From Bacteroidia bacterium (lineage in GTDB: Bacteria; Bacteroidota; Bacteroidia; AKYH767-A; OLB10), in contig DAOQTX010000001.1 in NCBI GenBank assembly GCA_035340715.1, positions 7,894 through 71,893 on the forward strand: DNA of 64,000 nucleotides, written 5' to 3'. The stretch's first letter is position 1; each line of letters begins with the position of its first letter. Below the pieces are notes generated by a model. That model did not search any database, was not told the DNA's origin, and saw only the letters and a program-made list of their open reading frames with translations. Positions 25,013 through 60,248 of the stretch are shown here, in pieces. Made by a program: the position numbers and the translations under genes.

Positions 25013-25016
25013 ACTT

Positions 25017-26426: not shown

Positions 26427-26428
26427 AT

Positions 26429-30936: not shown

Positions 30937-30960
30937 TCCCAAATCTACACTTCTTCGATT

Positions 30961-30999
30961 AACAACAAAAATGGTCTGCAATTTCTTGCAGACCATTTT
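30961..30999 (-). terminator. Rho-independent terminator of the giant adhesin gene
   Basis: 14-bp perfect stem AAAATGGTCTGCAA / TTGCAGACCATTTT with loop TTTC. Followed on the minus strand by TTTTTGTTGTT. Lies 38 nt after the stop at 31037-31039. Confidence 0.6.
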
Positions 31000-31036: not shown

Positions 31037-34000
31037 TTATTGAAGAACAATTCTTACGATTTCACTATCACCATCAACATTAAGTTGAATCATATATACA
31101 CCTTTGCGCAATGTGCTAAAGTCGTAGTTGATTTGGTTCAATCCGCCATCGGCAATACCGCTGTGGCTATAAACCATCTTACCCGTCATATCCATCATGT
31201 GCATAGTGTACTGAGCTCCATATTCAGCATTAAACTGTAAGCTTAGCGATCCATCGGTTGGGTTCGGGAATGCCTTCACAGCCATTCCATCACCTAATCC
31301 GTGAGCAACTCTTGGAGGAGCAGCAGGACAAGTAAGCACACTGTTCTGTTGAACACCACCTGACCAACTTTGGTTGATCAATGCTACTGCATTTGAAAGT
31401 GCAGTTGCACTGTATGGTGAGCTACAACCTGCCAGTTTCTTATTAGCCTCAGCCAATATTTGATTTACGGTCATACCACTGAATGGCGCGTTTGCATAAA
31501 TCATATTGCCTAAGCTAACGGTGCTGGTAGGCGCAAAATTAGGATCATACTGATCAAACTTAACGTTCAATGTCAACGCTACCAATTCAGCAGCGAAAGT
31601 ATTGCTATACGTTGAGAATGTTGGATTCACCAAGTTAGCTGTCAATGACGCAGGAGATCCAGTACTTGGCAAGAACAACTTCACAGCCGTTACATTGGTT
31701 AACTGTAGTGACTTACCACCGGCACAGTACGAAGTACCACCAAGTGTTAAGTATGCAGGACCAGGGAATACCGCATTAAAGTTATTTGCTAAGTAGGTTC
31801 CGGCATTGCTTCCGTTAGGAGCTACATTCCAACCAGCAGTAGTTTCAGTTCTGAATCCAATACAGCTGTATGCAGGCTCAGTAATAACTACTGTTGCCGC
31901 TACAGTACAATTATTAGCATCGGTAACTACTACAGTATAAGTAGAAGCATACAATCCACTTGCAGAAGCAGTTGTTTGAGCAGGAACAGTGTTCCAGCTA
32001 TAACTGTATGGAGGAGTTCCTCCACCTACTGTAGCTGTAGCAGAACCATCACTTCCTCCAGGGAATGAAACGTTCGTCTGACTGGTGCTGATAGACAAGG
32101 CTGCAGGATTACTGATCGAGGCGCTGCACTGAGTACTACATCCATTCGCATCGGTAACAATAACTGTATAAGTACCACCAGATAATCCGCTTACAGAAGA
32201 CATTGTAGAGCCATTGCTCCAAGCATAGCTATATGGTGCAGTTCCACCACTTGCACTTACAGAAGCTGTTCCATCATTTGCTCCGTTACAGCTGATGTTA
32301 TTTTCAGCAACTGAACATACCAATTGATTTGGCTCTGTAATCACTACGCATAAGTATGCTGCACAACCTTTACCGTCAATTACATTGATTGTATATGGAC
32401 CGGCAACTAAGTCGGAACGATCTTCAGTAGTTGCACCATCATCCCAAACAAATGAGTATGGTGTAGTTCCACCGCTGATCACTATGTCAATAGTACCAGT
32501 GTTTCCACCGTTACAGTCGACATTTGTACCGGTTCCGCTGATCGACAATGGTGTTGCAGGCTGACTGATAATTACCAACATTGAAGCGGTACATCCGTTA
32601 GCATCTCCAACCGTTACGGTGTAGATACCAGCCGTCAATCCGGTAGCAGTTTGAGTAGTTTGAATTGGCGCTGTGCTCCAGTTATATGAGTAAGGAGCAA
32701 CTCCACCACTCACATGAACTGTAGCGTTTCCGTTATTTCCACCAAAGCAACTGATATCGGTCTTAGTTACTGATAGTGCTATTGCATCCGGCTCAGTTAA
32801 AGTAATCTGAGCTGCAGCAATACAAGTTCCATCATCAACAGTAACTGTGTATGTACCCGCTGTTAATCCAGTGATATCTTCAGTGGTTGCACCATTACTC
32901 CATAAGTAGGTGTATGTGCCGCTTCCACTAACTACCGTCAGATTCACAGAACCATCAGTACCACCATTGCAACGGATATTATATCCACCTGCATAAACTG
33001 GTGAAGCAATATTCAACGCTAGGTTACCATTGTTAGGCATAATTACACAATGAACAGTAACACAACCATTTTCATCGGTTACAGTTACATAATTAGCACC
33101 TGCCGGTAAACCGGTAGCTGTTGCCGTTGTTTGAACCGGGTTGGTATTCCATGCATAGCTGTATGGTCCACTTCCTCCGGATACACTCACTTGAGCTGAT
33201 CCGTTGGCTACACCACAACCTGCTACTTGAAGTATTGAGTCAACTACAACCATTGGTGCAGGCTCAACAACTTCAATGCTATCTTGTGCAATACATCCAT
33301 TTGCATCGCTTACTGTTACATAGTACCAACCTGCAAGCAGATTACTGATTACATTTTGGTTTCCTCCAGTGCTCCAGCTATAAGAGTATGGTGAAGTTCC
33401 ACCACTAACAATTACACCTGCGCTACCGTTGCTGTATCCATTGCAGCTAACATCAGTCTTGCTCATGGCAAGAGATAATGCAGCAGGCTCGTTTACAACA
33501 CCAGATAATTCAAGAGTACAACCTGTTGAATCGGTAATGGTAACCGTATATGAACCTCCGGCTAATCCACTAGCATTCTGAGTCGTTTGACCATTGCTCC
33601 ATGCAAAGCTGTAAGGCATAATACCACCACTTAAGTTGGTAACCGCTAATGAACCATCGGCAGCACCATTACATGATACATGCGTTGGAACCAAAACAGC
33701 TGACAATGAAGCAGGTTGATTTACAACTACAGTACACATTGTAGTACAACCATTTGCATCAGTCACCACTACAGTGTAAGTACCAGCTGCAAGGTCAGTA
33801 GCAATTGCATTGGTTTGGATCGGGCTGGTATTCCAGCTATAGCTGTATGGAGCCTGACCACCAAACACATTTACAGTTGCAGTACCATTAGCCTGACCAC
33901 AATATGCAAACGTACAAGAAGTGTTGCATGTAAATGGTGCAGGTTCAGTTATCTGAACAGATCCATTAATGCTACATCCGTTGGCATCGGTTACCGTTAT

Positions 34001-37000
34001 AAAATAAGTACCGGCAGCCAATCCACCTGCCATAGCGGTAGTTTGACCATTGCTCCACAAGTAAGTATATGGCTGTGTGCCTCCACTTACATTAGCAGTA
34101 GCATGTCCGGTAGCAGCACCGTAGCAGTTGTTGTCAACCTTATTGATATTTAATGCCAATGGCATTGGTTCATTAATAACAGCAATGCAAGATGTAGAAC
34201 ATCCACTAGCATCAGTAATGGTTACGGTATAAACACCAGCTCCCAGTCCAGTTGCAGTTGCAGTGCTTTGGAATGGTGCAGTATTCCAGTTGTATGAATA
34301 TGGAGGAGTTCCACCATTAACAACAACAGTAGCTGAACCATCTTGATATCCATTACATGTTACATTAGTTGTAGAAGAAATAGAGCAGCTTAAGTTACCG
34401 GTTTGACCGATAATAACTACATCTGCATTCACACAACCATTTGCATCCGTAACGATCACGTTATAAACACCTGCTGCCAATCCGGTAGCCGTTGCATAGA
34501 ACTGACCATCAGACCATAGATAAGTATAAGGACCTACTCCACCTGTAGCGGTTACGGTAGCAGAACCATTATCCTGTCCACAACTTGCGTCAATTCCAAC
34601 AGTACTTAATAGTAATGCTGCAGGCTCTGTAACTGTTATGCTAGCATTAACTACACAACCATTCACATCAGATATGGTAACACTGTATGTACCGGCTCCA
34701 ACACCACTTAAGTCTTCGGTAGTTGCTCCGTTGCTCCATACAAAAGAGTATGAAGGAACTCCACCACTAACGGTTAAGTCAATTGCACCGGTTAAGTTTC
34801 CATTACAGTCAACATTAGTTACTGTATATCCATAATTCAACTGAGTAGGTTGACCAATTTTAACACAGCATACTATGCTACATCCTAGAGAGTCAGTTAC
34901 TGTTACATAATATGTACCAGCAGCCAATCCTGTTGCAGTAGCGGTAGTTTGTACCGGAACTGTATTCCAAGCATACGTATATGGAGCACCCACACTATAT
35001 GGAGTACCACCACTTACATTGGTTGTTCCACTTCCATCAGCACTACCAAAGCAAGTAGGAGCAACTACAGTAGAGTCAACACATACAAGTGCTGAAGGCT
35101 CAGTTATTACAATACTTGCAGATGCAGTACATCCAGAGAAATCTTGAACTATTACTGTATACACGCCTGCCACTAAGTTTGTAGCTGTTGGAGTATTCTG
35201 AAGATTATTCCATAAGAACATGTATGGAGCTGTTCCACCACTAACACTTACGGTAGCAGAACCACTGTTACCGCCATTACAAGCTACATTCGAACCACTG
35301 ATGTTCAATAACATTCCTGCAGGCTCATTTACGGTCACCTGACAAGTAATACTACATCCATTGGCATCGGTAATGGTAACGGTATGAACTCCGGCTGCAA
35401 CTAAATTAGCAGTAGCTGTTGTCGCTCCATTGCTCCACAAGTAAGATAGAGCACCTGTTCCACCTACGGCAGATACAGTTACTTTACCATCGGAATATCC
35501 ATTACAAGATACATGATCCAATACTGAACAATTCGCAATAATCTGACTTGGGTCAATGATCTCTACTTCTTCAGTAGCGGTACAACCACCTGCATCGGTA
35601 ACAGTAACGGTATAAACACCGGCTATTAATCCAACTGCAAGATCAGTTGTTTGACCATCGCTCCACAAGTAGCTATAAGGCTGTGTACCACCCACCGGAA
35701 CAGCTAGAGCTGAACCATCGTTTCCACCGAAACATGATGGGTTTACTGAAGGATCAATATCTACCTGTAAAGTACCAGGCTGACTGATCACTACATTCGC
35801 CATTTCATTACATCCATTTGCATCAGTAACGGTAACAACATACACACCAGCCGTTAATCCGGTTGCTGTAGCTGTTGTTTGACCATTGCTCCACAAGTAA
35901 CTGTACGGTGCGGTTCCTCCTTCTGCCAATGCAGTTGCAGAACCCAATCCACCATTACATGGAATGTTTACTACGTTAATCATTGTAACCACTAAAGCAC
36001 TGTCTGGCTCGGTTACTTCAATGCTATCCTGAGCAGAACATCCTACAGCATCTGTTACCGTAACAGTATACATACCAGCAACTAAACCAGTGGCAGTTGC
36101 AGTATTCTGTGGAGGTACTGTATTCCATAAGATTGTATATGGAGGTGTTCCACCTGATATTGTTGTAACAGAAGCAGTACCATTGTTACCACCGGTGCAA
36201 CTTACACTGGTTGTTGACAATGCACCTATCACAATTGAATTAGGTTGATTTACTATAATTCCACTTACTACTATAGAACAGTTGTTGGCATCCGTTACCG
36301 TTACGCTGTACGATCCGGCTACTAATCCACTAGCTGTTTGTGTCGTCTGACCATCGCTCCATAAGTAAGTATAAGCTCCGGTTCCACCCACTGGGAATAC
36401 TGTAGCTGATCCGTCATTGCCACCATTACAAGTGGTATTCACCACAGAGAATGTAGCTGTTATTGCAACCGGTTCGGTTACTGTAACATCACATACTGCA
36501 GTACATCCATTGGCATCGGTAACTACTACAGTCCAAACACCTGTACTTAAACCTACAGCCGTAGCTGTTGTTTGAGCAGGATTGGTATTCCATAAGTAGC
36601 TTAGCTGACCAGAACCACCGGTAGCAACAGCTGTAGCCTGACCATCATTTCCACCATTACAGCTTACGTTATTATCTACACTGCATGATAAGTTAATTGC
36701 AGGAGGCTCTGGAATAACCACAGTACAACTGGTATTACAACCATTAGCATCCACCACTATTACGGTATAAGTACCCGCAGGTAAACCTGTTGCAGAAGCA
36801 GTAGTTTGAACCGGGTTTGTACTCCATATATACATATAAGGACCCGTTCCACCATTTACATCTATACATGCTGCTCCATCGTTAGCTCCAAAACAACTTA
36901 CCGGCTGGAAGCACTGATTGTTTACAGAACAACTTAATGAGCTAGACTGAGAAACAGTCACTGCACACTCAGAAGTACAACCTTTAGCATCGGTAACCAC

Positions 37001-40000: not shown

Positions 40001-43000
40001 AATTCCGGAAGTTGCGATACAACCACCAAAGTTAGGTGGGAAGTAAACCGTTACCTGGAATAATCCAACTCCTACTGTAGTGAAAGTACTATCAGGACTA
40101 GGACCAAAGCCCCAATCGAATAAAGTACCAATTGGCCATCCACCAGGATAGTTAACCGGATCGGAAGCAACTAAGGTTACTGATCCACCGGTACAAACCG
40201 TAGTATCGTCTGGTGAAATAATAGGTTGAGGCACAGCTACAGGAGAAACGCTAATAGAATCTTGTGCTGTACAACCGGTAATATTATCTGTCACGGTTAC
40301 TACAAATGTAGTTGGACCATTCAATACCGCATTAGCGGTTTGCTGATTTGGATTAGAGAATAATCCGGCAGGAGCCCAGCTATAGGTTACACCACTTGGT
40401 GCAAACTGCCATCCTTCATTGGTAGCCGACCAGCTATTGTTCGCATTGCGACCTGGAACTACTTCGGCTAAGGTACCATTTGAATTCTCAATACCTAAGG
40501 TATGGTTGCCACCATCGGTGGTCATTTGCGTAATGTGAACCTGAATAATATTGGATCCTTCACTCAAAACAATTTGAGATGTCATTGGGCTACCGCCACC
40601 TCCAAAGTGAGGAATAGCATTGAAGTTAACTACCAATTTTTGATTGGGCGAAATACCGGTAGTGAAATAATCAATCGTTCCACCAGCACCAGGGTTAAAG
40701 TCTTCCCATGGGAAGGTAATAATATTATTTGGAGTGCCTGCACCAGGCAATAAACCACCGGTACAACATCCGTTAGGAGCAGCCAGATCAAAGGATATAA
40801 ATCCATTGGAGGCAATTACAAATTGGCTGTATGAATTACCATAGAAACCAAAGTTAAATCCTATAGGCAATGCAGCACTGGTTTGATCGTCACCCAAAGT
40901 AACAGCAGTACCCACACCGGCTATCGGTGCAAATGGTACGGATGATACCTGATAAGTGGTTCCAAACGGAGAGGTTCCACTTGCGCTCAATTGAATTGAG
41001 TCACCGGCACAAACTACCGCAGGAACAGCATTTATGGCTGTAACCGATGGTAAGGCATTTACTACAACAGTAATAGTGTCTGAACTCTGACAAGAATCAG
41101 GAGTTGTAGGATCTATACCATAAACAATATAAGTAGTTGTTTGCGTAGGACAAACATTAACCGTTTGACCAATTAAATTACCCGGCTGCCAGGTATATTG
41201 ATAGTTTGTATTTAAGCTATTTGCAGAAAGATCGGTACACTCGCCTAAGCAAAGGTCAGAATCGATTGCACTTGCTGTAATATCATCAGCAGGAGTTGAA
41301 ACTGCAACTACCATTACACGACCAGATTCACAAGCGCCACCCGAACCGGCAAAAGGTAATGTCATACCCGGATTGGTTGCATTTATACTTGTAGTTTGAA
41401 TTGCGAAGTCGTTTAAATCATTATTATCCGAAGTACCATTTCTTGATAAGCTCAATCCTGCATTTGCAGTTGTAGCATCAATACCATTTCCTGTCCATGC
41501 AGAAGCAGGAGCAACAGGGTTACTTGGATTGCCGGGTATGTTTATGCTCATACCGGCAATATTTGCTGAAGGCCAGTTCCAAATAACAAAATCTCTGATT
41601 GCACCGGTATTATCCATCAAAATAGCCCATCCGGTAAATGAAGGGAATGACCCAGGATTCCAGAACAAATTCGATCCCCAAGGATTAGTAACTCCATCAG
41701 TCCAGAACATGGTTTGACCCGGAGCAATAGTACCTGATAGAACCTGAACGGTTGCATTGACAAAATTAATGTCTGTATAACTGTCACTTACTGCAAGTCT
41801 CCAACCTGTTACATCAACTGCTGAGCCACTTACGTTTTGAATCTCGATTTGATCTGTTCCACCTAAATCGGCCTCTGTAATTAAAATTGCAGAGGAGCCT
41901 GCTTGATTTCCTGAACCGCTTATCAAGGTGTCAATAGCAGCCACGTAGAATGTATCGGTACCGGTAATAATTGGGTTAAATGGAGAACCATATGCTAAAG
42001 GCGTTCCGCCACTGGCTTCATCATACCATACAATTGGGAACCCATTACTGGTAGCAGTTAAGTTAACAGCACCGATACCACAAATTGTATCTCCTAAGGA
42101 TGATAATATTTGAGGAGCAGATATATCAACTTTTAATATGTTAGAATAAACAGTGTCTTGACAATATGCTTTTAGTCTGTACCAAGTCATACTGCTAAGC
42201 GTATCGGTTTCATAGAAAGAACTATCCGCTCCGCTAATATCAGAGAAGTTAATACCATCATTAGAAATTTGCCATTGCAACATTCCCAATGTTGCAGTAG
42301 AAGTGAATGAGGTTACACCACTATAACATAATACTGAATCTCCTACGAAAGAAATTGCCGGAGCTTCAGGGAATGTAGAAACTACTACTACCACATTGCT
42401 GCTCGCGGTACAACCACTCGCAGGATCGGTTACGGTAACAAAGAAGTTCTCGGTACCTAATGTAGTTGCCGTAAAGGTTGGGTTTGCAATATTTGGATTG
42501 TCCAAATTAGCCGCAGGTGACCATGAATAAGTTACTGCTCCACCAGTTAATCGCATGCTCGGACGGAATTGCTGCAAAGCACCTGTTAAATCGGCACATG
42601 GATCGGCATTGTCTGAACGGAAGGTATTACATGCCGGAGTAGCGGTCATAAATACCAAGTCAAAAAATGAGGTTGTAGCATTTGCGAAACAAGTATTGAT
42701 AACCACATCAGATACTCCATCCCACATGAATGGCGTGCTGAAGTTCATGGTGTTCCAACCCAATACAGTACTTACATTACCTGTAAACACAGTAGTAAAT
42801 CCGGCTGTTTGATAGGTTGTAACAGCAAAACATCCATTTGGAGAAGCATGCGCCATACTGATAGTAAATCCGGTATAAGGCTGCGTACTTAATTTATTGG
42901 AAACATTGAATGCTAATGAGCTTATTTGACCAGGTCCTAAAATGCCTGCTGCATTTAATTCTGATGCTCTGATTAGAATTTGTGAACGCTGAGTTAAGTT

Positions 43001-46000
43001 TGCACCGTTAAATATTTGTCCGGTAACTAAGCCCGGATCTTGCCCGCCACCTATCGTAACCACACTGCTCTTAGAGGCCACAGCATTTAATTGCAATCCA
43101 TTACCGATACAAACGGTATCTACCAATGGAATATCTATGCTAACTAAAGGAGCAGGATTTACCGTAATGGTAACTGAAGCGGTATCAATGCAACCACCAC
43201 CACTAGCTGTAACAATATAGGTAGTCGTAACGGTTGGGGTAGCAGTAACGCTGGCACCACTGGTAGCACTTAAGCCTGCAGCTGGTGACCATGAGAAGCT
43301 GGTCCATGAAGGATCGCCACCGGCAGTCAATACCACGTTTGCCTGATCGCAAGCCGAAGTTGAACCGCTAGGGGTAATGCTCAATGGAGGTGCAGGATCT
43401 ACCTGATAATTAGCTATACATGCTTGAGAGAAACATCCATAAGAAACATTCCAATTATAGAATAATCCGAATGTAGTACTACCAAAAATTGTAGGAGCAG
43501 CAGGAGGAATATGAGATCCATATCCGTTAATCAATATCTGGAAAGGAATCTGATAAGGAGCACCGGCTGCTACGGTACCATTTTGATGTACCAATAAGTT
43601 AGGGCTGGTAACAATACGCATACGGTATTGATTTCCTTTAGGTACAAACCAGTTTAAGTTAACGGTTTGCACGTTGAAAGGAGGATTCACTGAAGTGTTG
43701 GTAACGGTAGTAACACCACTCACCAATCCACCTAAATTATTTCCGGCACTGTCTTGTAATTGTATAGCATAAGGTGAACCAATAGGTCCGTTAGGGATAA
43801 TATCAACCGTGTTGATACGAAGACCATTATCGGATAATACCGAGAATACCATATACTGCTGTGTAGTTGGGAAATAACCCACACCGGCTGTTGGGTTCGA
43901 TACCGGATCGTAACCAATTTGAGCAGGTGTAGCACCCGGATCTTCAACCACGTAGGCTGACCCACTGCTGAATACATAAGGACTATAGTTATTACCCGTA
44001 GCAACCACAGGACCACCAATAGTATCGGTCCATAACAGAGTACCACCCGAACCAACAGCACTTAAATTAACCGTACCCTGACCACAAATGGTATCGCCTA
44101 AACAAGCAGGCGCTGCAGGGGTTGGCAATGCCGTAACCAAGATTGAGTCTTGAGAAGTACAACCATTGTTATCGGCTGTAACTACATAATACGTATTTCC
44201 TGAAGGAGGCGTAGCTTGTACGTTTGCTCCGGTAGCAGGGTTGGTAGCTGGCGACCATGAATAAGTGATTGTGCCAGACCCTGAAGGAGTTCCCGGGAAT
44301 ACTACGTTATTAAAATTACAAGTAGCAGCTCCAAATAAATTATCGGAACTGGTCATTGTAAATCCAAATACATCGCCATTGCTTACTGCAATTGAAGCTG
44401 AACTGCTTTGAACCAAACCACCTCCGGTATTATATCCGGGTACATTTGTACGTATTCCATTTAAGTAATATTGAGGAAAATCGAAATTAGCCCCATCAAC
44501 AGTTGAATATTGCCAATCGAAGGTAACAAAACCATTTGCATTGATCACATGAATTACATCAATACTTGTATTACCTGTTCCACCATCACTTGAATTCATA
44601 TTCAAATCAGATGAGGTATGAAAGTTAATAGTTCCTAAATCACCGCTCGTATGTTGTTCTGTCCATGATACTGGTACATAAGTGCCTGTGAATCCATTGG
44701 TAGGAGGTGTACCACCCGATAAAATAGCAGAAGCACTCAGATTAATAACTGTATTTTCACAGAACACAGATTGATCTGCCGTTACAGAAGTAATTATAGG
44801 AGTACTACCAACATTGATCACAACGGTATCGGTATTCACACAACCGGTGCTTGTATCGGTACCGGTTAAAATATAGGTTGTGGTTACCGAAGGAGTTGCA
44901 ATTACAGGTGTTCCTGAAGTTGCACTCAAACCTGCGGCAGGGGCCCAGCTATATTGATAGTTGGGGTCGTTCGTACTGCTTGCACTTAAAGTAGCTGAAC
45001 CTATACCATCGCACAATTGCGTAGTGCTGGCACTTATATTTACATCATCTGCAATGCCCGGTATTACTGTTACCGCTAAGCGGTTAAGTGAAGAACATCC
45101 CGAACCCGGGTCCACTTCTTGAGCATACCAGGTTTGTGTTCCGCAAGCATAAGGAGTTACTAAAGGAGAACCGGTACCTATTAAGTTACCACCTGTTGGG
45201 GCATCGTACCATTCTAAATTACCACCATTAACAGGTGTAGCATAAATATTGGCTTGTCCACAACCACAAAATACATTCGTAACGCTATCCAATGTTGGTG
45301 TAGGCAATGCAGGAATAACATTAACTATGGTAGTATCCGAAGCCGAACATCCATTCAAATCGGTTACGGTTAAGGTATAAATAGTAGTGGTTGTTGGAGA
45401 AGCAACCGGATCGGCAATGGCATTGTTGTTTAACGATGCCGCAGGTTGCCAATCGAATGTTAAGTTTGGATCTCCGAATGAATAATCTACTTTTCCATAA
45501 AAGTTTCGATTTGCAATACTGGATGTTAATGTTCCACCCCATCCTGAATACATTGTTATAGTACCATCACTTCCTAAATTAGTTGCACAACCTGAACCGG
45601 TTAAATAAGCAACGCTTTGTCCACCTAATGCAAAAGAATAGGTAGCTCCCGGAGGAATGGTTACATTCAAATCAACAGGTATTAAAGTGTAATTAATTAC
45701 TGAAGGTGGAGTACTTGTACCACCAGAAACACAAGCAATATTCGAAGCAATAAGCGTCCAATTTGCATCTGTTGACACATTGGTTGGATAAGAACAGGCC
45801 ATTGAAGAAGTTCTCAAATAAACCGACTCTGTTAAATTAGTACCTAAAGTAGCAGTACTATTAAAGTATAAATAGTTTATAGTAATAGGGAAGGCAGAAT
45901 TATTCTGTATTTCAAAACCAACAGCGGCAGAACTATTAGTTGTTCCTACAGGAGTGGCATTAAAGGTTCCACTGATAAAGTTATTCGCATGTAGTGTAGT

Positions 46001-49000
46001 GCTCGATCCTTCGCAAATGGTATTGGCATCAGCCGTAGGGAAGATGGTTGGCAAAGGATTTACCACCACTACTGCTTCGGTTCTAACGCTCGGACAAACG
46101 CCATTGTCGTCTTCGGCCCAATAGCTGGTAGTAACTACCGGAGTTGGGTTAAAGGTAGCGCCTGTAAAGAGCAAGGTGCCACCAAATTCTGAATCGTACC
46201 ACTTAATTGTACTCGAACCGGTAGCGGTAATGCTGGCTGTTTCACCAACACAAATCGTATCATTAGTAACGCCAGGTGCGTTGTTGGCTACACCGGGAGA
46301 GGTTACGGTTACACTTCCTGTTGTGGTACAACCAGTACTTTGATCGGTAACGGTAACCGTATAGGTTTGTGTACCGCTTACGATAAAGGTAATGTCTTGT
46401 GTAGTATCACCGGTTGACCAACTGTAGCTTAAGTTACATGGAGGCTGAGTAAACGTTGTGTTGAGTGTTCCAATGCTGGAAGCATTTGGACCGGCTGCGT
46501 GAACCACCCAATCAGATGCATTATTATTATCGGTAGCTGCAATACGGCTAACTCCGGATGAGGAAGTGCCAATGGCACCGGACCAATCTGATGCTGTTAC
46601 CGCAGGAGCACCGGTTCCTACCACATTAAAGCCATTCAATGCTACAACATCTTTAATGGTATTGTTTTGATCATATAATATATAACCATTTTGAACGGTT
46701 GAACTTGTAGTAGGTAAAGTAGAGGCAAAATATACTCCCGGTATATTTGGACTGCCTGCACCCCTTGATATTACAAATACGGCTCCGGCAGGAATTATGT
46801 TTCCGGCAGGAATAACCTGATTGCCTACGGCAGAACCTGTTACTTCAAGTCTCCATCCCGAAATATCAACCGGAACAGGGCTTATATTGGTTAATTCAAT
46901 CCAGTCATCCCCAGGTTCAAATGGTGAGGGAGGCCCTTGTCCGGTACCGGCTTCAAACTGCTGAACCTCTGAAATGACCACCAAACCACAAGCATCAATG
47001 AAGCCTTGCGATTCAAGAGTCAATGAGTTATTTGAACATAAGGTTGTATCGTCAGATACAGTCAAGACCGGTGCAGGAGTTACCACCACAATCACTTCGG
47101 TACGTACCGAAGGACAAATGCCATTAAAATCATCAACATAGAAAGTGTCGGTAACCAATGGTGTTGGGTTAAAAGTTGGGCCTGTGGCCAATTGTGTTCC
47201 ACCTACAGGGGCATCCCACCAACGTAAAGTTCCGGGTCCGCTGGCTGTTAAATTGGCAGTTTCGCCCTGGCATAATGAATCGCCAGGAGCGGTAGGTGGA
47301 GGGTTACCTGCCCCTAAGTTATTTATACCAACTGTATCCGTAGCCGAACATCCTGTAACGCCATCGGTAACTGTTACGGTATAAGTCGTAAAGCCGATTG
47401 GAGGAGTTGCGGTAGGATTAGAGATATTAGTAGCACTTAATGCCGGTCCGCTCCAAGAAAATGTTGGAGGTGAGGCAGCATCAAATCTCCAAGCTTCAGG
47501 ATATGTTACTGCACCCCAATTTCCCACAGATCTACCCGGAGGTGAACCACCAACAGTACCTGTGGCATTTTCAGAACCTAATGCGGTTGTATTTGAACCT
47601 TGCGTATTATTGGTTAAGTGAATTTCAAAACGACTATTTCCATTGTTTTCATGCAATTGCAATTGAGTAGAAATTCCGGGAGTTGCAGAAAAATAATTAA
47701 CGTTATCAAAGTTAACAACATATATCCTGAATGGAGCAGTGCCTACCGTATAAGCAGTTACTTGCCCGGCAGTTGGATTTAGATCCTCCCAACCAAATGC
47801 GATACAATTGTTTGGGTTGGTTGCTGTTGGGAACAAAGTAGGTACTCTACTTTCAACCGCGGTAGCCAAATTGGTTGCAAACTCTACATATCCATTTGAA
47901 TTAATGTATAAAACGGTTTGAGGAACTCCATAAAAAGTAAAAGTAAAAGGTAAAGTTTGTGGTCCGGAATACACATCATCACCTGTAACTGGGCTTAAAG
48001 CACCCCCAGGAACCGGTATTACGTTAGGTGTAATTGAAGTTATATTGTAACCCACCGTTTGACCTGAAATATTAGTATTTAACTGAACCGTTTCTCCATC
48101 GCAAATGGTATAAAAAGGTGATGCAGTTGCATCAACTTGTATTTGAGTATTAATAGGTGAAGCCAATAGGTCGTTACCTGCAAATCCGTCTCCTGCAATA
48201 CTCACATTGAATGAGAAAGTATAGGTACCGGCAGCAGTCATATCGTAATTTGTACTAAAGGTTATCACTTGTGTAGCCAAACTGGCCAAGGTACCACTGT
48301 TTAACACTACCGCTGGGAATGAAGTTGGGTTTGGCCCGGTAACACTACAGGTAATGGTAGCATTGTTTACTGAAAAATCTATGGTAGAAGTACCCAATTG
48401 TTGTAAAGTAGCCGAAACGGTTTGATTGGCACCATTACAAACAGGGTTTATTGGGGCTGCCTGATTGACCATAGCCAAATCAACAGGCGTAGCAGGCAAG
48501 AACTCCATTTGAACGTTTATACGATTACTATTTCTTGAAAATGTTGCCGGCATTGTAGATCCACCGGTAGAACCTGCTGCATTAGTAGTAGAAGTATACC
48601 TCCAAGCTGGGATTGTTCCTGATCCTGTGAAAGTAGGTCTCTGATTTTCTACTAAAATCATTATGTTGCCTCCTCCCCATATATAATTTGAAATATCAAA
48701 CTCTTTCCATCCAGAGCCTCCTGATATGGCAGTTGCATTGTCATAAACCAATGTTGCACCTGCAATTTCAGTCGCCCAGGTAATAGTAGTGGTTGGAAAC
48801 TGTGTTGTTGCACCAACTTCTTTGATATATACTCTGGACATAATGGTGGTAACTCCAGCAAATCCGGCTGTATTCTGAAACCATCTCAATTTATCAATTG
48901 ATGATCCGGCAAATACTCCTTGAGCATTTATTTCGGAAGCAGTATATATTGCTCCTCCTCGATGAAATGCAAATGTACTTGTCCAAGCTGACCAATAAAC

Positions 49001-49195
49001 TGGTGCACCTACTGTTGTAGATAATGTGCTTGTTCCAGTACCAAGTGTTACAAGTTGTGCCTGAGCCTGTGGCGTTTGCCAAAGACTAAAAGCCGTCATT
49101 AAAACGGCTGTCATTAAACAAACACTCCAGTTTTTAAGCGATGTTCGGTTGTTGTAGAAATTACCCATGGCTATAGAGATTTTAATATTTTTCAA
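31037..49195 (-). CDS. Giant (6052 aa) SprB-like cell-surface adhesin. Signal peptide, two lamin-tail domains, Ig-like/unknown beta modules, about 32-35 tandem SprB repeats and a T9SS C-terminal sorting domain.
   Basis: Single uninterrupted 18,159-nt ORF. N-terminal signal peptide (LMTAVLMTAFSLWQTPQAQA). SprB-repeat consensus CxGxxDGxIxxxxxGGxxPYxYxWSNGxTT...AGxYxVTVTDANGC repeated about 35 times. Two LTD-like segments (DWIELTNISPVPVDISGWRL, IEIQNVSGSAVDVTGWRL). The C-terminal about 80 aa match the Por_Secre_tail CTD (KAFPNPTDGSLSLQF...GVYMIQLNVDGDSEIVRIVLQ). Alternative start at the Met 9 codons downstream (MGNFYNN). Confidence 0.85.
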   Translation of the reverse strand: MKNIKISIAMGNFYNNRTSLKNWSVCLMTAVLMTAFSLWQTPQAQAQLVTLGTGTSTLSTTVGAPVYWSAWTSTFAFHRGGAIYTASEINAQGVFAGSSIDKLRWFQNTAGFAGVTTIMSRVYIKEVGATTQFPTTTITWATEIAGATLVYDNATAISGGSGWKEFDISNYIWGGGNIMILVENQRPTFTGSGTIPAWRYTSTTNAAGSTGGSTMPATFSRNSNRINVQMEFLPATPVDLAMVNQAAPINPVCNGANQTVSATLQQLGTSTIDFSVNNATITCSVTGPNPTSFPAVVLNSGTLASLATQVITFSTNYDMTAAGTYTFSFNVSIAGDGFAGNDLLASPINTQIQVDATASPFYTICDGETVQLNTNISGQTVGYNITSITPNVIPVPGGALSPVTGDDVYSGPQTLPFTFTFYGVPQTVLYINSNGYVEFATNLATAVESRVPTLFPTATNPNNCIAFGWEDLNPTAGQVTAYTVGTAPFRIYVVNFDNVNYFSATPGISTQLQLHENNGNSRFEIHLTNNTQGSNTTALGSENATGTVGGSPPGRSVGNWGAVTYPEAWRFDAASPPTFSWSGPALSATNISNPTATPPIGFTTYTVTVTDGVTGCSATDTVGINNLGAGNPPPTAPGDSLCQGETANLTASGPGTLRWWDAPVGGTQLATGPTFNPTPLVTDTFYVDDFNGICPSVRTEVIVVVTPAPVLTVSDDTTLCSNNSLTLESQGFIDACGLVVISEVQQFEAGTGQGPPSPFEPGDDWIELTNISPVPVDISGWRLEVTGSAVGNQVIPAGNIIPAGAVFVISRGAGSPNIPGVYFASTLPTTSSTVQNGYILYDQNNTIKDVVALNGFNVVGTGAPAVTASDWSGAIGTSSSGVSRIAATDNNNASDWVVHAAGPNASSIGTLNTTFTQPPCNLSYSWSTGDTTQDITFIVSGTQTYTVTVTDQSTGCTTTGSVTVTSPGVANNAPGVTNDTICVGETASITATGSSTIKWYDSEFGGTLLFTGATFNPTPVVTTSYWAEDDNGVCPSVRTEAVVVVNPLPTIFPTADANTICEGSSTTLHANNFISGTFNATPVGTTNSSAAVGFEIQNNSAFPITINYLYFNSTATLGTNLTESVYLRTSSMACSYPTNVSTDANWTLIASNIACVSGGTSTPPSVINYTLIPVDLNVTIPPGATYSFALGGQSVAYLTGSGCATNLGSDGTITMYSGWGGTLTSSIANRNFYGKVDYSFGDPNLTFDWQPAASLNNNAIADPVASPTTTTIYTLTVTDLNGCSASDTTIVNVIPALPTPTLDSVTNVFCGCGQANIYATPVNGGNLEWYDAPTGGNLIGTGSPLVTPYACGTQTWYAQEVDPGSGCSSLNRLAVTVIPGIADDVNISASTTQLCDGIGSATLSASSTNDPNYQYSWAPAAGLSATSGTPVIATPSVTTTYILTGTDTSTGCVNTDTVVINVGSTPIITSVTADQSVFCENTVINLSASAILSGGTPPTNGFTGTYVPVSWTEQHTSGDLGTINFHTSSDLNMNSSDGGTGNTSIDVIHVINANGFVTFDWQYSTVDGANFDFPQYYLNGIRTNVPGYNTGGGLVQSSSASIAVSNGDVFGFTMTSSDNLFGAATCNFNNVVFPGTPSGSGTITYSWSPATNPATGANVQATPPSGNTYYVVTADNNGCTSQDSILVTALPTPAAPACLGDTICGQGTVNLSAVGSGGTLLWTDTIGGPVVATGNNYSPYVFSSGSAYVVEDPGATPAQIGYDPVSNPTAGVGYFPTTQQYMVFSVLSDNGLRINTVDIIPNGPIGSPYAIQLQDSAGNNLGGLVSGVTTVTNTSVNPPFNVQTVNLNWFVPKGNQYRMRIVTSPNLLVHQNGTVAAGAPYQIPFQILINGYGSHIPPAAPTIFGSTTFGLFYNWNVSYGCFSQACIANYQVDPAPPLSITPSGSTSACDQANVVLTAGGDPSWTSFSWSPAAGLSATSGASVTATPTVTTTYIVTASGGGCIDTASVTITVNPAPLVSIDIPLVDTVCIGNGLQLNAVASKSSVVTIGGGQDPGLVTGQIFNGANLTQRSQILIRASELNAAGILGPGQISSLAFNVSNKLSTQPYTGFTISMAHASPNGCFAVTTYQTAGFTTVFTGNVSTVLGWNTMNFSTPFMWDGVSDVVINTCFANATTSFFDLVFMTATPACNTFRSDNADPCADLTGALQQFRPSMRLTGGAVTYSWSPAANLDNPNIANPTFTATTLGTENFFVTVTDPASGCTASSNVVVVVSTFPEAPAISFVGDSVLCYSGVTSFTSTATLGMLQWQISNDGINFSDISGADSSFYETDTLSSMTWYRLKAYCQDTVYSNILKVDISAPQILSSLGDTICGIGAVNLTATSNGFPIVWYDEASGGTPLAYGSPFNPIITGTDTFYVAAIDTLISGSGNQAGSSAILITEADLGGTDQIEIQNVSGSAVDVTGWRLAVSDSYTDINFVNATVQVLSGTIAPGQTMFWTDGVTNPWGSNLFWNPGSFPSFTGWAILMDNTGAIRDFVIWNWPSANIAGMSINIPGNPSNPVAPASAWTGNGIDATTANAGLSLSRNGTSDNNDLNDFAIQTTSINATNPGMTLPFAGSGGACESGRVMVVAVSTPADDITASAIDSDLCLGECTDLSANSLNTNYQYTWQPGNLIGQTVNVCPTQTTTYIVYGIDPTTPDSCQSSDTITVVVNALPSVTAINAVPAVVCAGDSIQLSASGTSPFGTTYQVSSVPFAPIAGVGTAVTLGDDQTSAALPIGFNFGFYGNSYSQFVIASNGFISFDLAAPNGCCTGGLLPGAGTPNNIITFPWEDFNPGAGGTIDYFTTGISPNQKLVVNFNAIPHFGGGGSPMTSQIVLSEGSNIIQVHITQMTTDGGNHTLGIENSNGTLAEVVPGRNANNSWSATNEGWQFAPSGVTYSWAPAGLFSNPNQQTANAVLNGPTTFVVTVTDNITGCTAQDSISVSPVAVPQPIISPDDTTVCTGGSVTLVASDPVNYPGGWPIGTLFDWGFGPSPDSTFTTVGVGLFQVTVYFPPNFGGCIATSGIANVNFIDAPVAVAIPTSALCAGDPSGSITGLAFLGVPPYRYQWYDNNNVLIRDTISFLGSDLITGLPTGNYCLVVTDKANTNSYPPPQCSSFPACAFVGEPLPVSATETHVDVVCYGDASGSIDITPSGGTPPYTYLWSNNATSEDLVNITAGTYTVTVTDANGCTYQTAVDILSNPQIVVGKTVVNVSCFGGGDGIASVAVSGGVGPYTYLWSNGATDEDADSLSSGIYCVTITDAVGCDTVVCFLIAEPAQMQVVATVVNPACHGTCNGSISLAVSGGTPYSSGSGYNFLWSNGATTSSASGLCAGTYTITVSDSLGCLHYVVAQVIQPDSLLQLQATLTNPSCFGGSNGSIVAIPQGGVAPYTYLWSNGQTTATATGLTAGTYVVTVTDANGCVKLGSYSLINPPAFTHTMSVVNASCNGACDGKLIVNISGGTPPYSYLWNTNPAQTTNVADNLCAGSYTLIVTDANGCTYQVNGTVTEPDAIALNEVVTDLVCNGANNGIIELYVTGGVAPYTYIWSNGNSTATNSGLSAGSYTVTVTDASGCVHTQTIIVSEPSAIVIAGTATNVSCNGGTNGSISVVVSGGVSPYLFDWNTGETTQSVAGLPAGVYTVTVTDDNGCSSSMSWTITEPTALSCICPSSVTNVSCAGGSDGSITAIPVGGTPPYSYLWSNGAQTSTVGGLSAGNYTVTITDANGCIHISVVTVTEPSPLAVFTIPNDVSCYGLSDGSIQALAIGGTPPYSYSWSTNPVQTTSTATGLAAGAYTVVVTDANGCTQAVTTTINEPAEIVINIVRKKNVSCYGGSDGIAKVKAVGGTSPFSYLWSTGATTQDIIGMPAGTYKVTVTDANGCTRSRNVTINSAPQMVALYIVTNVSCNGGSDGSIDLTVTGGTPHNQNGPYRYTWSNGATTEDLTGISAGVYTVAVKDRKKCIIYATIIVNEPPALNCSSSSTAASCSGGNDGSASVFPTGGVVPYSFLWSNGSTAITATNLAAGTYTVVVTDAKGCTSECAVTVSQSSSLSCSVNNQCFQPVSCFGANDGAACIDVNGGTGPYMYIWSTNPVQTTASATGLPAGTYTVIVVDANGCNTSCTVVIPEPPAINLSCSVDNNVSCNGGNDGQATAVATGGSGQLSYLWNTNPAQTTATAVGLSTGVWTVVVTDANGCTAVCDVTVTEPVAITATFSVVNTTCNGGNDGSATVFPVGGTGAYTYLWSDGQTTQTASGLVAGSYSVTVTDANNCSIVVSGIIVNQPNSIVIGALSTTSVSCTGGNNGTASVTTISGGTPPYTILWNTVPPQNTATATGLVAGMYTVTVTDAVGCSAQDSIEVTEPDSALVVTMINVVNIPCNGGLGSATALAEGGTAPYSYLWSNGQTTATATGLTAGVYVVTVTDANGCNEMANVVISQPGTLQVDIDPSVNPSCFGGNDGSALAVPVGGTQPYSYLWSDGQTTDLAVGLIAGVYTVTVTDAGGCTATEEVEIIDPSQIIANCSVLDHVSCNGYSDGKVTVSAVGGTGALSYLWSNGATTATANLVAAGVHTVTITDANGCSITCQVTVNEPAGMLLNISGSNVACNGGNSGSATVSVSGGTAPYMFLWNNLQNTPTATNLVAGVYTVIVQDFSGCTASASIVITEPSALVCVDSTVVAPTCFGSADGSGTTNVSGGTPYSVGAPYTYAWNTVPVQTTATATGLAAGTYYVTVTDSLGCSIVCCVKIGQPTQLNYGYTVTNVDCNGNLTGAIDLTVSGGVPSYSFVWSNGATTEDLSGVGAGTYSVTISDVNGCVVNASITVTEPAALLLSTVGIDASCGQDNGSATVTATGGVGPYTYLWSDGQFYATATGLAAGVYNVIVTDANGCVNADVVIIGQTGNLSCSISSTTNVTCNGYQDGSATVVVNGGTPPYSYNWNTAPFQSTATATGLGAGVYTVTITDASGCSTSCIAVINEPMPLALNINKVDNNCYGAATGHATANVSGGTQPYTYLWSNGQTTAMAGGLAAGTYFITVTDANGCSINGSVQITEPAPFTCNTSCTFAYCGQANGTATVNVFGGQAPYSYSWNTSPIQTNAIATDLAAGTYTVVVTDANGCTTMCTVVVNQPASLSAVLVPTHVSCNGAADGSLAVTNLSGGIMPYSFAWSNGQTTQNASGLAGGSYTVTITDSTGCTLELSGVVNEPAALSLAMSKTDVSCNGYSNGSAGVIVSGGTSPYSYSWSTGGNQNVISNLLAGWYYVTVSDANGCIAQDSIEVVEPAPMVVVDSILQVAGCGVANGSAQVSVSGGSGPYSYAWNTNPVQTTATATGLPAGANYVTVTDENGCVTVHCVIMPNNGNLALNIASPVYAGGYNIRCNGGTDGSVNLTVVSGSGTYTYLWSNGATTEDITGLTAGTYTVTVDDGTCIAAAQITLTEPDAIALSVTKTDISCFGGNNGNATVHVSGGVAPYSYNWSTAPIQTTQTATGLTAGIYTVTVGDANGCTASMLVIISQPATPLSISGTGTNVDCNGGNTGTIDIVISGGTTPYSFVWDDGATTEDRSDLVAGPYTINVIDGKGCAAYLCVVITEPNQLVCSVAENNISCNGANDGTASVSASGGTAPYSYAWSNGSTMSSVSGLSGGTYTVIVTDANGCSTQCSASISNPAALSISTSQTNVSFPGGSDGSATATVGGGTPPYSYSWNTVPAQTTASASGLYASTYTVVVTDANNCTVAATVVITEPAYSCIGFRTETTAGWNVAPNGSNAGTYLANNFNAVFPGPAYLTLGGTSYCAGGKSLQLTNVTAVKLFLPSTGSPASLTANLVNPTFSTYSNTFAAELVALTLNVKFDQYDPNFAPTSTVSLGNMIYANAPFSGMTVNQILAEANKKLAGCSSPYSATALSNAVALINQSWSGGVQQNSVLTCPAAPPRVAHGLGDGMAVKAFPNPTDGSLSLQFNAEYGAQYTMHMMDMTGKMVYSHSGIADGGLNQINYDFSTLRKGVYMIQLNVDGDSEIVRIVLQ
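31871..39973 (-). repeat. Tandem coding repeat array of about 32-35 SprB repeats, about 77-85 aa (about 240 bp) each. Includes near-identical DNA segments.
   Basis: Recurrent protein motif PYxYxW(S/N)(N/T)(G/N). Recurrent nucleotide strings on the plus strand, e.g. CCATTGCTCCA(C/T)AAGTAAGTATATGG at about 34040, 35660, 35890, 38890 and 39350. Boundaries estimated from residue counting, +/- 100 nt. Confidence 0.7.
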
Positions 49196-49233
49196 AATTT
49201 ATGTTTTAAGGTTTTCGTTTTCTTTCGGTTAAA

Positions 49234-49749
49234 TTATTTGCTGAGTTTGTATTCGGTAGCGGTAACGGTATCGTTAAAACCATCGCGGTTATAATCCACC
49301 CATATTTTCATTTCAGTTAAACCGGCATCGGTAAATTGCACTTTAGCAATATATGATTGCTTAGCAAGTGTAATTGGATTTTGATTTAGCTGCATGTTGT
49401 TTGTAGAACTACCGGCAAACTCTGCATACAAAACCGGAAGATTGGAAGAATTATTAATGTTCGTATAAACTACTATATAGAAAAAATCATCTTCTCCGTT
49501 CTCAGAACCATTATCCAATGCATTTGATGTATATCTTTCAATAGGAACGTATCCTATCAATGTTTGACTTACATTATTCAGCTTCATCGTCATACCACGA
49601 TCGGGATAAGGACTAAAAGTAAACTCTATAGGAGTTCCTTTGATATCGCCTGTCCAGGTGCCTTCCATGTCGGATACACTTTGTGCGGTTGAAACTTGAC
49701 TGATGGCCATAAAGCCTGAAACAAGCAACAGAATGAATAGCTTTTTCAT
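49234..49749 (-). CDS. Small secreted beta-rich protein (171 aa) encoded 38 nt upstream of the giant adhesin gene, probably co-transcribed with it
   Basis: Signal peptide (MKKLFILLLVSGFMAISQVSTAQS). The ORF track extends to an upstream ATG at 49977, which adds a second hydrophobic segment; that start is uncertain. Confidence 0.45.
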   Translation of the reverse strand: MKKLFILLLVSGFMAISQVSTAQSVSDMEGTWTGDIKGTPIEFTFSPYPDRGMTMKLNNVSQTLIGYVPIERYTSNALDNGSENGEDDFFYIVVYTNINNSSNLPVLYAEFAGSSTNNMQLNQNPITLAKQSYIAKVQFTDAGLTEMKIWVDYNRDGFNDTVTATEYKLSK

Positions 49750-50380
49750 GATATGAGTAGGTTTAATTTTGTCGGAAACCGAGTGAGTGGAAGAAAAAGA
49801 AAAACCACGATGTACATCAGTATTTATCGTGGCTTCAGCCCTTTGGGCCTGATCAAAAGATTGATTGTCTGTGCAGGTAACAGGCGTATTCAAAACGCTC
49901 ATTGGTGTTAACCAGGTTATCACCAAACCCGAACAGATAAATAAGATTAATAAAGCGAGCGTAAAAAATTCTACCATCCGCTAATGATTTATTTTATGTA
50001 AGACAATTATGCAATTTAAAGCAATACTCTTCACTTGTAAAGGTTTTTACCAAACTTTTTTATCATTCTTACCAAAGAAATTATCCCACTCACCCAAAAA
50101 CATATGGATGAGAGCCATATTAAAACATCAAAAACAAGCCTAAAGGCTCGTTTAAGTTTTAAAACAATAATTCAAAGTGAAAAGGGCTTCTTGTAGCGGG
50201 ATTGAATTTCTTAACGATGTAAGAATATGAACGCAATTTAATAGGTTTTTCGAATTTGTCAAATAGCTGTCACAAAATATTTTCTGTCTTTGCCAAGGCT
50301 CAGGCCTGTAAAAACCTTTAAAAGCCTTGTAAACATTGACTTTTCTGCCATTTTGTTACTTTTCAACAAAAATGAAAATT

Positions 50381-51359: not shown

Positions 51360-51368
51360 TGCGTACGA

Positions 51369-52487: not shown

Positions 52488-52763
52488 TCCTTAAAAATTT
52501 AGAAAAGCAAGGTTGTGCAAAGATAACAATCGCCCAAGCAAGTGAGATCAAATCGATCGGATACCTTACATACTTTCTTACAATCAATTGTGAATAGACA
52601 AATGAAGAATAATTTCATAAAAGAATTTAAGGCGGTTGGTACTTGTTTAGTACATTTGCTTGATATAAGGCTACCGGCCTTTTCTGAAACAAAATCTTTT
52701 TCATCGGATATAGAGAACTAAATCTCCTTTTTTAACGTATAGTATCAATTACATAAACACAAT

Positions 52764-55073: not shown

Positions 55074-55079
55074 GCATTG

Positions 55080-56864: not shown

Positions 56865-56955
56865 TGCATTAAATCAGAACTAAATCAAAAAAGTCTCGTA
56901 TAGGTTTAAGCACATTTCTTATTTTTGAAACAGACATCTGCATCTCCTGCTTTTT

Positions 56956-58059: not shown

Positions 58060-58077
58060 TGAAGATTGTTTGAAAAG

Positions 58078-59088: not shown

Positions 59089-59124
59089 TACATTTGTGTC
59101 CCTTAATTGAGACCCGACCTATAA

Positions 59125-60174: not shown

Positions 60175-60248
60175 TCAATTTTCTTTACGTATTTTTGAAC
60201 ATATTGATTGGATATTATATTTAATCAAACTTTTTGAATGATACGGCC

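Follow-up and report, generated by a model that had tools for sequence, protein, structure and literature searches.

A single minus-strand open reading frame of 6052 codons, counted from a TTG, takes up 28% of the 64-kb stretch of DNA analysed here (the window), and we found it unbroken from 31037 to 49195, as the initial annotation had stated. Its product carries, from N to C terminus, a Sec signal peptide, a modular half, 35 SprB repeats, a ~200-aa domain and a T9SS sorting domain. The gene lies within a polysaccharide and GDP-fucose biosynthesis locus, and its features and immediate surroundings are as follows.

49234..49977, minus strand: upstream co-oriented small ORF, 247 aa, or 171 aa with a signal peptide if translated from the alternative start at 49749
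31037..49195, minus strand: giant ORF, 6052 codons counted from the TTG; stop codon at 31037..31039
49058..49168, minus strand: predicted Sec signal peptide, aa 10-46 (MGNFYNNRTSLKNWSVCLMTAVLMTAFSLWQTPQAQA, followed by QL), by sequence inspection
48491..49057, minus strand: distal "tip" jelly-roll domain, copy 1, aa 47-235
47441..48103, minus strand: ~220-aa module, copy 1, aa 365-585, with an FYG...NGxxxF motif
46643..46987, minus strand: lamin-tail domain 1, aa 737-851 (PF00932)
42548..43069, minus strand: "tip" jelly-roll domain, copy 2, aa 2043-2216; P0012 matches in two stretches
41582..41905, minus strand: lamin-tail domain 2, aa ~2431-2538 (PF00932, 35.5 bits with the segment scanned alone)
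40376..41023, minus strand: ~220-aa module, copy 2, aa 2725-2940
31871..39964, minus strand: array of 35 SprB repeats, aa ~3078-5775 (PF13573, 35 stretches, 1143 bits)
31271..31870, minus strand: ~200-aa domain between stalk and C-terminal sorting domain (CTD), aa 5776-5975, with no Pfam match
31040..31270, minus strand: T9SS type A CTD, aa 5976-6052 (TIGR04183, PF18962)
30968..30999, minus strand: intrinsic-terminator-like hairpin, a 14-bp stem then a T-rich tail, 38 nt past the giant stop codon

The true start of the giant gene is probably the ATG at 49168 (MGNFYNN...), giving 6043 aa. This start is called in one assembly, and a 77%-identical relative starts at this point too, with the same signal peptide. 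With the start at 49168, the gap to the upstream ORF becomes 65 nt, in place of the 38 nt given earlier. The protein predicted from this ATG has a mass of 617 kDa and a pI of about 4.05. The giant ORF is identical to NCBI HNQ11668.1/HNT79068.1, whose name there is "T9SS type A sorting domain-containing protein". By eye, the signal peptide that the initial annotation had proposed has R/K in its n-region, then the hydrophobic core WSVCLMTAVLMTAFSLW, then a c-region with an AQA↓QL site; the homologous gene in the relative L089 opens with the same 38 residues. The Bacteroidota O-glycosylation motif D[ST][AILVMT] occurs 36 times in the protein against 26 +/- 5 in shuffles, a weak enrichment. Horizontal transfer, prompted as a candidate by a GC content of 43%, was rejected because the GC excess lies wholly at codon position 2 and GC3 (0.28) equals that of the neighbouring genes; by its composition, the gene is native to its genome.

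Terminator-like hairpins lie between fcl and the upstream small ORF as well as past the giant stop codon. The two genes flanked by these hairpins seem to form a transcription unit of their own. Upstream of this putative operon we found no exact match to the Bacteroidetes -7 promoter box TAnnTTTG, which is also not enriched in the window. The 247-aa ORF, a candidate partner of the giant gene in the initial annotation, has no family match in Pfam or NCBIfam and one relative only, at 59% identity, where the gene order gmd-fcl-ORF-giant is kept; as judged from these searches, it is an ORFan apart from this close relative, which likewise adjoins a giant gene. The 679-aa ORF downstream, whose listed ATG is overlapped by the hairpin at 30968..30999, was considered as a partner and rejected, since the terminator lies in between and its L042 homologue is not beside a giant gene. 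Neither of these two ORFs matched PorP_SprF. The window contains a gldH gene, with no porV, porU, sprA or gldKLMN and no T6SS genes inside its 64 kb; the presence of the T9SS machinery in the host, a member of the Bacteroidia, is assumed from its phylum, the CTD and the gldH gene. In none of 80 related genomes compared for conserved synteny does the giant gene lie near PBP1a; the 842-aa GT2 glycosyltransferase gene is conserved there in its N-terminal domain, and nothing else is.

Pfam PF13573 and motif parsing both returned 35 SprB repeats, where about 32-35 consecutive units had been estimated before, and this count rests on short-read assemblies evidently of one strain. Units recur with a period of 74-83 aa after a first interval of 95 aa, each carries two conserved Cys, and their alignment gives a mean identity of 45% at the amino-acid and 53% at the nucleotide level. 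The AF2 model built for three units consists of beta structure throughout (pLDDT 93.5). Its top PDB matches in Foldseek were three stem fragments of GhpA (9flw, 9flp and 9fly; E 5e-9 to 9e-8), but many proteins unrelated to these also match Ig-like tandem repeats about as well. The repeat profile detected GhpA as well, in 11 stretches with an E-value of 2.9e-12, at an identity between GhpA and the SprB repeats of 19-26% only.

At the C-terminal end, the T9SS sorting domain that had been proposed was matched by TIGR04183 (NCBIfam; 113.7 bits where the cutoff is 23, the match reaching the last residue) and by PF18962 (Por_Secre_tail; 71.3 bits), so that the profile check suggested with the initial annotation returned SprB, CTD and LTD matches alike. 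No Pfam or NCBIfam match to a type B CTD (TIGR04131 / CHU_C PF13585) was found in the giant protein at E<=0.01, and FPNP and GxY motifs are seen in the CTD sequence. By these profiles, the CTD of the giant protein is type A, not the type B of Flavobacterium SprB. The sole match when both protein halves were compared with PDB sequences was a weak one of the CTD to 8glk_D, a 75-residue chain deposited as "Endonuclease I". The ~200-aa domain that precedes the CTD is matched by four contig-end fragments at 42-57% identity and by two weaker partial matches; Por_Secre_tail is present in all four fragments and SprB repeats in one. A link to TANFOR-type polymorphic toxins (PMC7073777) was discarded after NCBIfam scans of the giant protein and the two flanking ORFs gave no TANFOR match.

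The N-terminal half, about 3000-3070 aa that had been described as non-repeat, proved to be a mosaic that includes duplicated modules. It holds five Ig_7 domains and about nine more Ig-like modules, two LTDs, a ~220-aa module and a ~180-aa jelly-roll domain in two copies each, and three unique domains of ~160-200 aa. PF00932 (LTD) matched the whole protein in two stretches with 72.7 bits, against a gathering cutoff of 34.3. The two copies of the ~220-aa module share 35% identity, and homologues of it occupy an N-terminal position in the T9SS cargo proteins P0002, P0005, P0006 and P0009. Neither copy has a significant Pfam match even at E<=5. A NIDO identity, suggested by a motif, is not claimed here: neither copy had a Pfam NIDO match at that threshold, and the assignment was dropped.

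The two jelly-roll domains resemble carbohydrate-binding modules, and one of them sits at the very tip. The tip jelly roll occurs in about 5000 representative proteins, and its family recurs, often at the N terminus, in other T9SS cargo, some of it type A proteins 4.4-4.9 kaa long. The multi-domain head probably binds carbohydrate, and enzymatic or toxic activity could be hidden in the roughly 1000 aa of N-terminal domains that have no family assignment. A homologue search with the N-terminal 700 aa returned only nine matches, weak and partial, and found no relative among GTDB species representatives; aa 1-3100 gave no match to any PDB sequence at E<=0.01 (phmmer).

PorV, the general shuttle, recognises every type A CTD, while type B cargo requires a cognate PorP/SprF protein whose gene is usually downstream (PMC12618676). 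A covalent bond to A-LPS is reported for type A cargo (PMC9143113), and in F. johnsoniae some of this cargo is shed (PMC12618676). We favour, with a probability of about 0.72, the reading that the giant protein is type A T9SS cargo, a static surface-attached or shed adhesin with an Ig-like stalk and a head, uncoupled from the gliding motor. The steps that such a protein would follow are all inferred from its domain order and from published T9SS work. Sec would export it to the periplasm by way of the N-terminal signal peptide; the last ~77 residues, the type A CTD, would be recognised at the SprA/Sov translocon and passed to PorV; and after removal of the CTD, the protein would be attached to the surface or shed into the medium. 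Attachment may follow the mode shown in Porphyromonas gingivalis, where type A cargo is bound to anionic LPS. The C-terminal end would then adjoin the cell, leaving the N-terminal ~3000 aa as the working end. The 35 SprB repeats are likely to form a chain of small Ig-like beta-sandwiches that serves as a stalk, ~120-160 nm long if each Ig-like domain adds about 4 nm, in line with the 240-nm GhpA fibre. At its end, the predicted head would present two jelly-rolls, two lamin-tail domains, the two modules shared with other T9SS cargo and three further domains, set among Ig-like spacers. Such a protein may function as a multivalent adhesin of long reach that binds polysaccharide or the surfaces of particles or cells.

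Cargo is directed onto the helical gliding track by a type B CTD. Because the pair of type B CTD and SprF is absent here, we expect no coupling to the gliding motor. The initial annotation had noted that no PorP/SprF-like gene flanks the giant gene, and we detected none in the 28 window ORFs scanned or in the stored Pfam annotation of the remaining called genes. It had taken this as a sign of an orphan or differently organised system. That interpretation is not supported, because type A cargo takes the general PorV shuttle and needs no cognate SprF/PorP, so that the absence of an adjacent sprF is to be expected.

The protein might instead be a true SprB-type gliding adhesin, a mobile filament on a helical track that is organised without sprC, sprD and sprF. 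The 35 SprB repeats and a size near that of F. johnsoniae SprB speak for this, and the gldH gene in the window suggests a gliding-capable lineage. A type A CTD alone is also compatible with a role in motility, because RemA, whose CTD is type A, is reported as a mobile gliding lectin/adhesin in work cited in PMC12618676. We nevertheless regard a gliding filament as unlikely, given a CTD of type A rather than B, a 64-kb window with no PorP/SprF-like gene among its scanned and annotated genes, and a similarity to SprB that is known through the generic SprB-repeat profile only. What stands of the earlier description as a SprB-like adhesin is a giant, adhesin-like, Sec- and T9SS-targeted protein with SprB repeats; the SprB-type gliding filament is not supported.

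We can also extend the favoured reading of static type A cargo, doubtful though this extension is, to a division of SprB fibres into two classes by anchoring. The giant protein would then be a natural example of the second class, a static capture appendage, possibly multimeric and GhpA-like, that is fixed along the type A route (PorV/PorU, lipid-glycan) and not by a PorP-like barrel; the polysaccharide and GDP-fucose locus might be the source of the anchor glycan or bring about glycosylation of the fibre, and the conserved small ORF might assist in assembly or anchoring.

Somewhat less probable still, in our estimate, is that the protein forms a multimeric appendage of the GhpA kind, in which aligned protomers make a rigid "grappling hook" that catches cells or flagella. 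Beyond the matches of the repeat model and repeat profile to GhpA, the two proteins are alike in plan and size (5898 aa for GhpA and 6043 aa here; bioRxiv 10.1101/2024.01.29.577165), and the repeats contain conserved Cys where GhpA has disulfides that link neighbouring Ig-like domains. However, the structural matches lose weight because many unrelated proteins match Ig-like tandem repeats about as well, and the sequence of the N-terminal half matches neither GhpA nor any other PDB chain. In Aureispira sp. CCB-QB1, the PorP and PorE homologues ghpB and ghpC lie downstream of ghpA and serve in anchoring (bioRxiv 10.1101/2024.01.29.577165); homologues of this type are absent from the window, as are T6SS genes. 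GhpA itself is a heptamer.

The giant gene is not an assembly artefact, because its repeats have diverged (maximum 67% nucleotide identity between units), the longest exact direct repeat within the CDS is 26 nt, and at least six metagenome sample assemblies (one ENA, four JGI and one SRA-derived) agree. Eight contigs are 100% identical to the window over the retrieved loci, and two of them carry a full-length gene call, with retrieved loci that miss 372 nt in one case and ~10 kb at the 3' end in the other. That the ORF arose from collapsed or mis-joined repeats, or is a pseudogene interrupted in the real genome, is highly improbable even though every available assembly is short-read and several contigs end inside the gene: besides the divergence and the agreement among contigs, the frame is open from signal peptide to CTD with domain matches throughout, its GC3 equals that of its neighbours, and gene start and gene order are kept in the 77%-identical relative.

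The giant protein is a fresh member of an already known class, and its NCBI name already places it as type A. Proteins with SprB repeats and Por_Secre_tail were noted earlier (PMC7073777), and P0007, P0161, P0016, P0020 and others use the same vocabulary of tip jelly roll, Ig_7, SprB repeats and type A CTD. The four contig-end fragments have the pre-CTD domain and the CTD in common with it. None of the proteins examined combines 35 SprB repeats with its N-terminal mosaic, and we found no full-length orthologue in the representative genomes of GTDB species. It also carries several widespread domains that have no match among the Pfam models searched.

The main value of the analysis is corrective: how a T9SS fibre is handled is predicted by its CTD type, not by its repeat type, and what looked like an orphan SprB gene is on this basis an unremarkable type A cargo gene. 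The protein is like SprB of Flavobacterium johnsoniae (6497 aa) in being giant Bacteroidota T9SS cargo with SprB repeats (PF13573) and a Sec signal peptide, and filament formation would be expected of both. Its N-terminal half consists of LTD, Ig_7, jelly-roll and other modules, and its likeness to SprB is seen in the generic repeat profile. [quoted passage not shown] The giant protein differs in its CTD, which is type A, and in having no SprF-like gene beside it. In CTD type, and hence in recognition by PorV, it is like RemA of F. johnsoniae. When SprB was given RemA's type A CTD, it was secreted and surface-exposed but immobile (PMC12618676). This chimera, in which the body of SprB is joined to a type A CTD, amounts to a laboratory analogue of the giant protein, which is in turn its natural counterpart. 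If the protein is indeed a static capture fibre, it would add to the kinds of T9SS surface appendage known from uncultured Bacteroidia. Among solved structures, GhpA (PDB 9flp, 9flw and 9fly) comes closest to the repeat stalk. Both proteins have a signal peptide, an adhesin-like head, a long Ig-like stem and a T9SS sorting domain; they differ in that the GhpA hook module has no detectable sequence similarity to the N terminus of the giant protein and in the anchoring genes of GhpA. The GhpA cryo-EM structure is a usable template for stalks built of SprB repeats.

The giant gene is a single minus-strand frame at 31037..49195 whose 6052 codons, counted from a TTG, translate without interruption, as the initial annotation had claimed. 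Because this 18-kb frame is open throughout, a chance origin can be ruled out. The true start is probably the ATG at 49168 (MGNFYNN...), nine codons inside the TTG; it is the start of a 6043-aa gene call in one public assembly, and the homologous gene of a relative with 77% DNA identity opens with the same 38 residues. The ~40 nt ahead of this ATG (window 49169..49210 (-); ~3965..4007 of L089, the relative's locus) are nearly identical between the two organisms, compared with 77% for the genes. This stretch contains TAAATTTTG, one base from the Bacteroidetes -7 box TAnnTTTG, and may represent either an internal promoter or a 5' leader. From ATG 49168, the product is 617 kDa with a pI of ~4.05 and 159 Cys, and is abundant in Thr, Gly, Ser, Ala and Val. 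The GC content of the gene is 43% versus ~36% in its flanks, with the excess confined to codon position 2 (0.54 versus ~0.33) and a GC3 (0.28) equal to that of neighbouring genes. Amino acid composition therefore explains the higher GC, and we dropped the idea of a foreign origin.

We scanned the protein as two halves against Pfam and NCBIfam. In the C-terminal half, Pfam detects 35 SprB-repeat stretches (1143 bits) and, at the C-terminus, a Por_Secre_tail (71 bits), while NCBIfam identifies a type A T9SS C-terminal sorting domain (CTD; TIGR04183) that reaches the last residue with 113.7 bits against a cutoff of 23. Neither scan matched a type B domain (TIGR04131 / CHU_C) in the protein. The N-terminal half contains five Ig_7 domains ('CHU_C associated') and two lamin-tail domains, so that the SprB, Por_Secre_tail/TIGR04183 and LTD profiles proposed for checking in the initial annotation all matched. 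Its description of the ~3000-aa N-terminus as non-repeat does not hold: windowed self-comparison revealed a mosaic with internal copies, including ~9 additional ~80-aa Ig-like modules and a ~290-aa block in two copies (aa 364-654 and 2728-3013). A ~220-aa module (aa 365-585 and 2725-2940) is also found in two copies in P0005, a 'PQQ-dependent sugar dehydrogenase' of the actinomycete Asanoa sp., and is therefore not limited to Bacteroidota or T9SS cargo. Three ~160-200-aa domains of the N-terminal half have no Pfam match, and a ~200-aa domain that follows the SprB array and precedes the CTD matches only a handful of contig-end fragments, the best four of which (42-57% identity) all carry Por_Secre_tail. 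We also identified two copies of a jelly roll, termed the tip domain.

Copies of the tip jelly-roll domain in the giant protein
48491..49057, minus strand: copy 1, ~180 aa, at the extreme N-terminus (aa 47-235)
42548..43069, minus strand: copy 2 (aa 2043-2216)

An exhaustive search with a tip-domain profile matched 5057 representative proteins, many of them 2-6.5 kaa long with several copies each, and the members that we scanned bear Por_Secre_tail or CHU_C tails. The domain is often N-terminal in T9SS cargo and often multi-copy in giant proteins. No family in the Pfam copy searched covers it in the scanned members, making it a candidate new family for curation.

For type A CTDs, PorV serves as a general shuttle that recognises them all; cargo with a type B CTD needs a cognate PorP/SprF-like protein, usually encoded directly downstream (PMC12618676). 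We found no PorP/SprF match by Pfam or NCBIfam among 28 scanned window ORFs, nor among the other genes in the stored annotation, in agreement with the initial annotation. Its proposal of an orphan or differently organised system is unnecessary, since type A cargo using the PorV route predicts a missing sprF. [quoted passage not shown] SprB is held by SprF, and type A cargo of P. gingivalis is covalently linked to anionic LPS (PMC9143113). Based on the CTD type and these swaps, we favour a static, long-reach adhesin that would be secreted and then either surface-attached or shed. Its C-terminus would lie proximal to the cell, with 35 Ig-like domains forming a stalk of perhaps ~120-160 nm (estimated from typical Ig-domain size and the dimensions of GhpA, the Aureispira grappling-hook protein) that carries a multivalent N-terminal head, which probably binds glycans. 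That the protein is instead a true gliding SprB is unlikely: both the type of its CTD and the lack of SprF argue against this, although RemA has been reported to be mobile and the window contains gldH.

The gliding-motility lipoprotein gene gldH (7214..7696 (-); TIGR03511, 113 bits) lies 23 kb from the giant gene and adjoins PSP1/RicT-like and HolB genes, and BamG, LptC and a SurA-like PPIase are encoded in the left third of the window (304..1614, 2900..3508, 5086..7167 (+)). Taken together, these genes point to a neighbourhood for outer-membrane biogenesis, in a lineage perhaps able to glide.

For aa 3704-3936, which span three SprB units in a row, a model built on an alignment of the protein's own 29 repeat triplets is all-beta, with a high-confidence pLDDT of 93.5. 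In a Foldseek search of the PDB, GhpA cryo-EM fragments ranked 1, 2 and 4 (E 5e-9 to 9e-8), with the rest of the list mostly eukaryotic Ig-domain adhesion molecules, and an HMM of the repeat triplets detected GhpA by sequence (E 2.9e-12, 11 stretches). GhpA is a 5898-aa protein with a signal peptide, an N-terminal adhesin-like hook, a heptameric, disulfide-stabilised, O-glycosylated 240-nm stem of 52 Ig-like repeats and a T9SS sorting domain, and PorP and PorE homologues are encoded downstream (bioRxiv 10.1101/2024.01.29.577165). A GhpA-like multimeric hook is structurally attractive, but is quite improbable given the absence of a PorP or PorE homologue in the window, the lack of detectable similarity between the giant protein and the hook module, and the many other proteins that Ig-like repeats also match.

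When excised and aligned, the 35 SprB repeat units show mean identities of 45% (aa) and 53% (nt), with 67% nt for the closest pair. The longest exact direct repeat across the whole CDS is 26 nt, below any assembler k-mer of consequence, so the repeats are unlikely to have misled assembly. We compared the window with eight loci on contigs that include the flanking genes (one ENA assembly, four JGI metagenomes, one SRA-derived assembly; short-read data throughout, evidently from one strain), and each was 100% identical to it; two of the contigs carry a full-length gene call, and the others terminate within the gene. NCBI HNQ11668.1/HNT79068.1 have the same 6052-aa sequence, and an assembly artefact or pseudogene is very unlikely.

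The host is an uncultured member of the Bacteroidia. No PBP1a from a GTDB species representative, all of them MAGs, exceeds 67-68% identity to its own. The giant gene sits in a polysaccharide-biosynthesis neighbourhood (50421..63415 and 24314..28951), with gmd, fcl, a Wzc-type kinase, an ABC exporter and glycosyltransferases on one flank, and a 679-aa ORF, a GT2 glycosyltransferase, a methyltransferase and PBP1a on the other; the locus also has a UDP-GlcNAc 2-epimerase. None of 80 related genomes has the giant gene in its PBP1a neighbourhood, and the sole full-length homologue of the 679-aa ORF among them (33% identity; locus L042) does not adjoin one. A terminator-like hairpin with a 14-bp stem, which begins 38 nt past the giant stop codon, overlaps the start codon listed for the 679-aa ORF, and two further such hairpins separate fcl from a small ORF upstream of the giant gene. 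With terminator-like hairpins on both sides, the transcription unit appears to comprise the small ORF and the giant gene. For the 679-aa ORF (28957..30996 (-)), translation more likely begins at Met21 (ATG at 30936), because the listed ATG lies inside the hairpin; the product has a lipoprotein-like signal (LLFLSAC) at Met21, and its C-terminus shows a faint GH16/ConA-like match (E 0.009). The small ORF has no family match and one relative (59% identity), located in L089, where the gmd-fcl-ORF-giant order is preserved. The 76-codon N-terminal extension of the ORF, ahead of a signal-peptide-like segment, is kept without indels (window 49234..49977 (-) versus L089 3204..3941), with 17, 11 and 23 differences at the three codon positions. 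This conservation suggests that the 247-aa form, which would have two hydrophobic segments, may be real rather than the 171-aa form.

Proteins with SprB repeats and Por_Secre_tail have been recognised as predicted T9SS substrates (PMC7073777). The database proteins P0007 and P0161, which share modules with the giant protein, also combine the two, giant type A cargo of 4.4-4.9 kaa with the same tip domain exist, and the NCBI pipeline names HNQ11668.1/HNT79068.1 'T9SS type A sorting domain-containing protein'. The giant protein itself is new, very large and uncharacterised; its kind, SprB-repeat cargo with a type A CTD, is already known. Its own interest is modest; more useful by-products are the connection of SprB repeats with the structure of GhpA, and the widespread tip domain, unmatched in the Pfam copy searched. 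Its SprB-repeat stalk resembles the Ig-like repeat stem of GhpA by fold and sequence profile. The two genes differ in genomic context, with PorP/PorE homologues downstream of GhpA and none in the window. In effect, the giant protein is the natural version of the chimera of SprB with a type A CTD.
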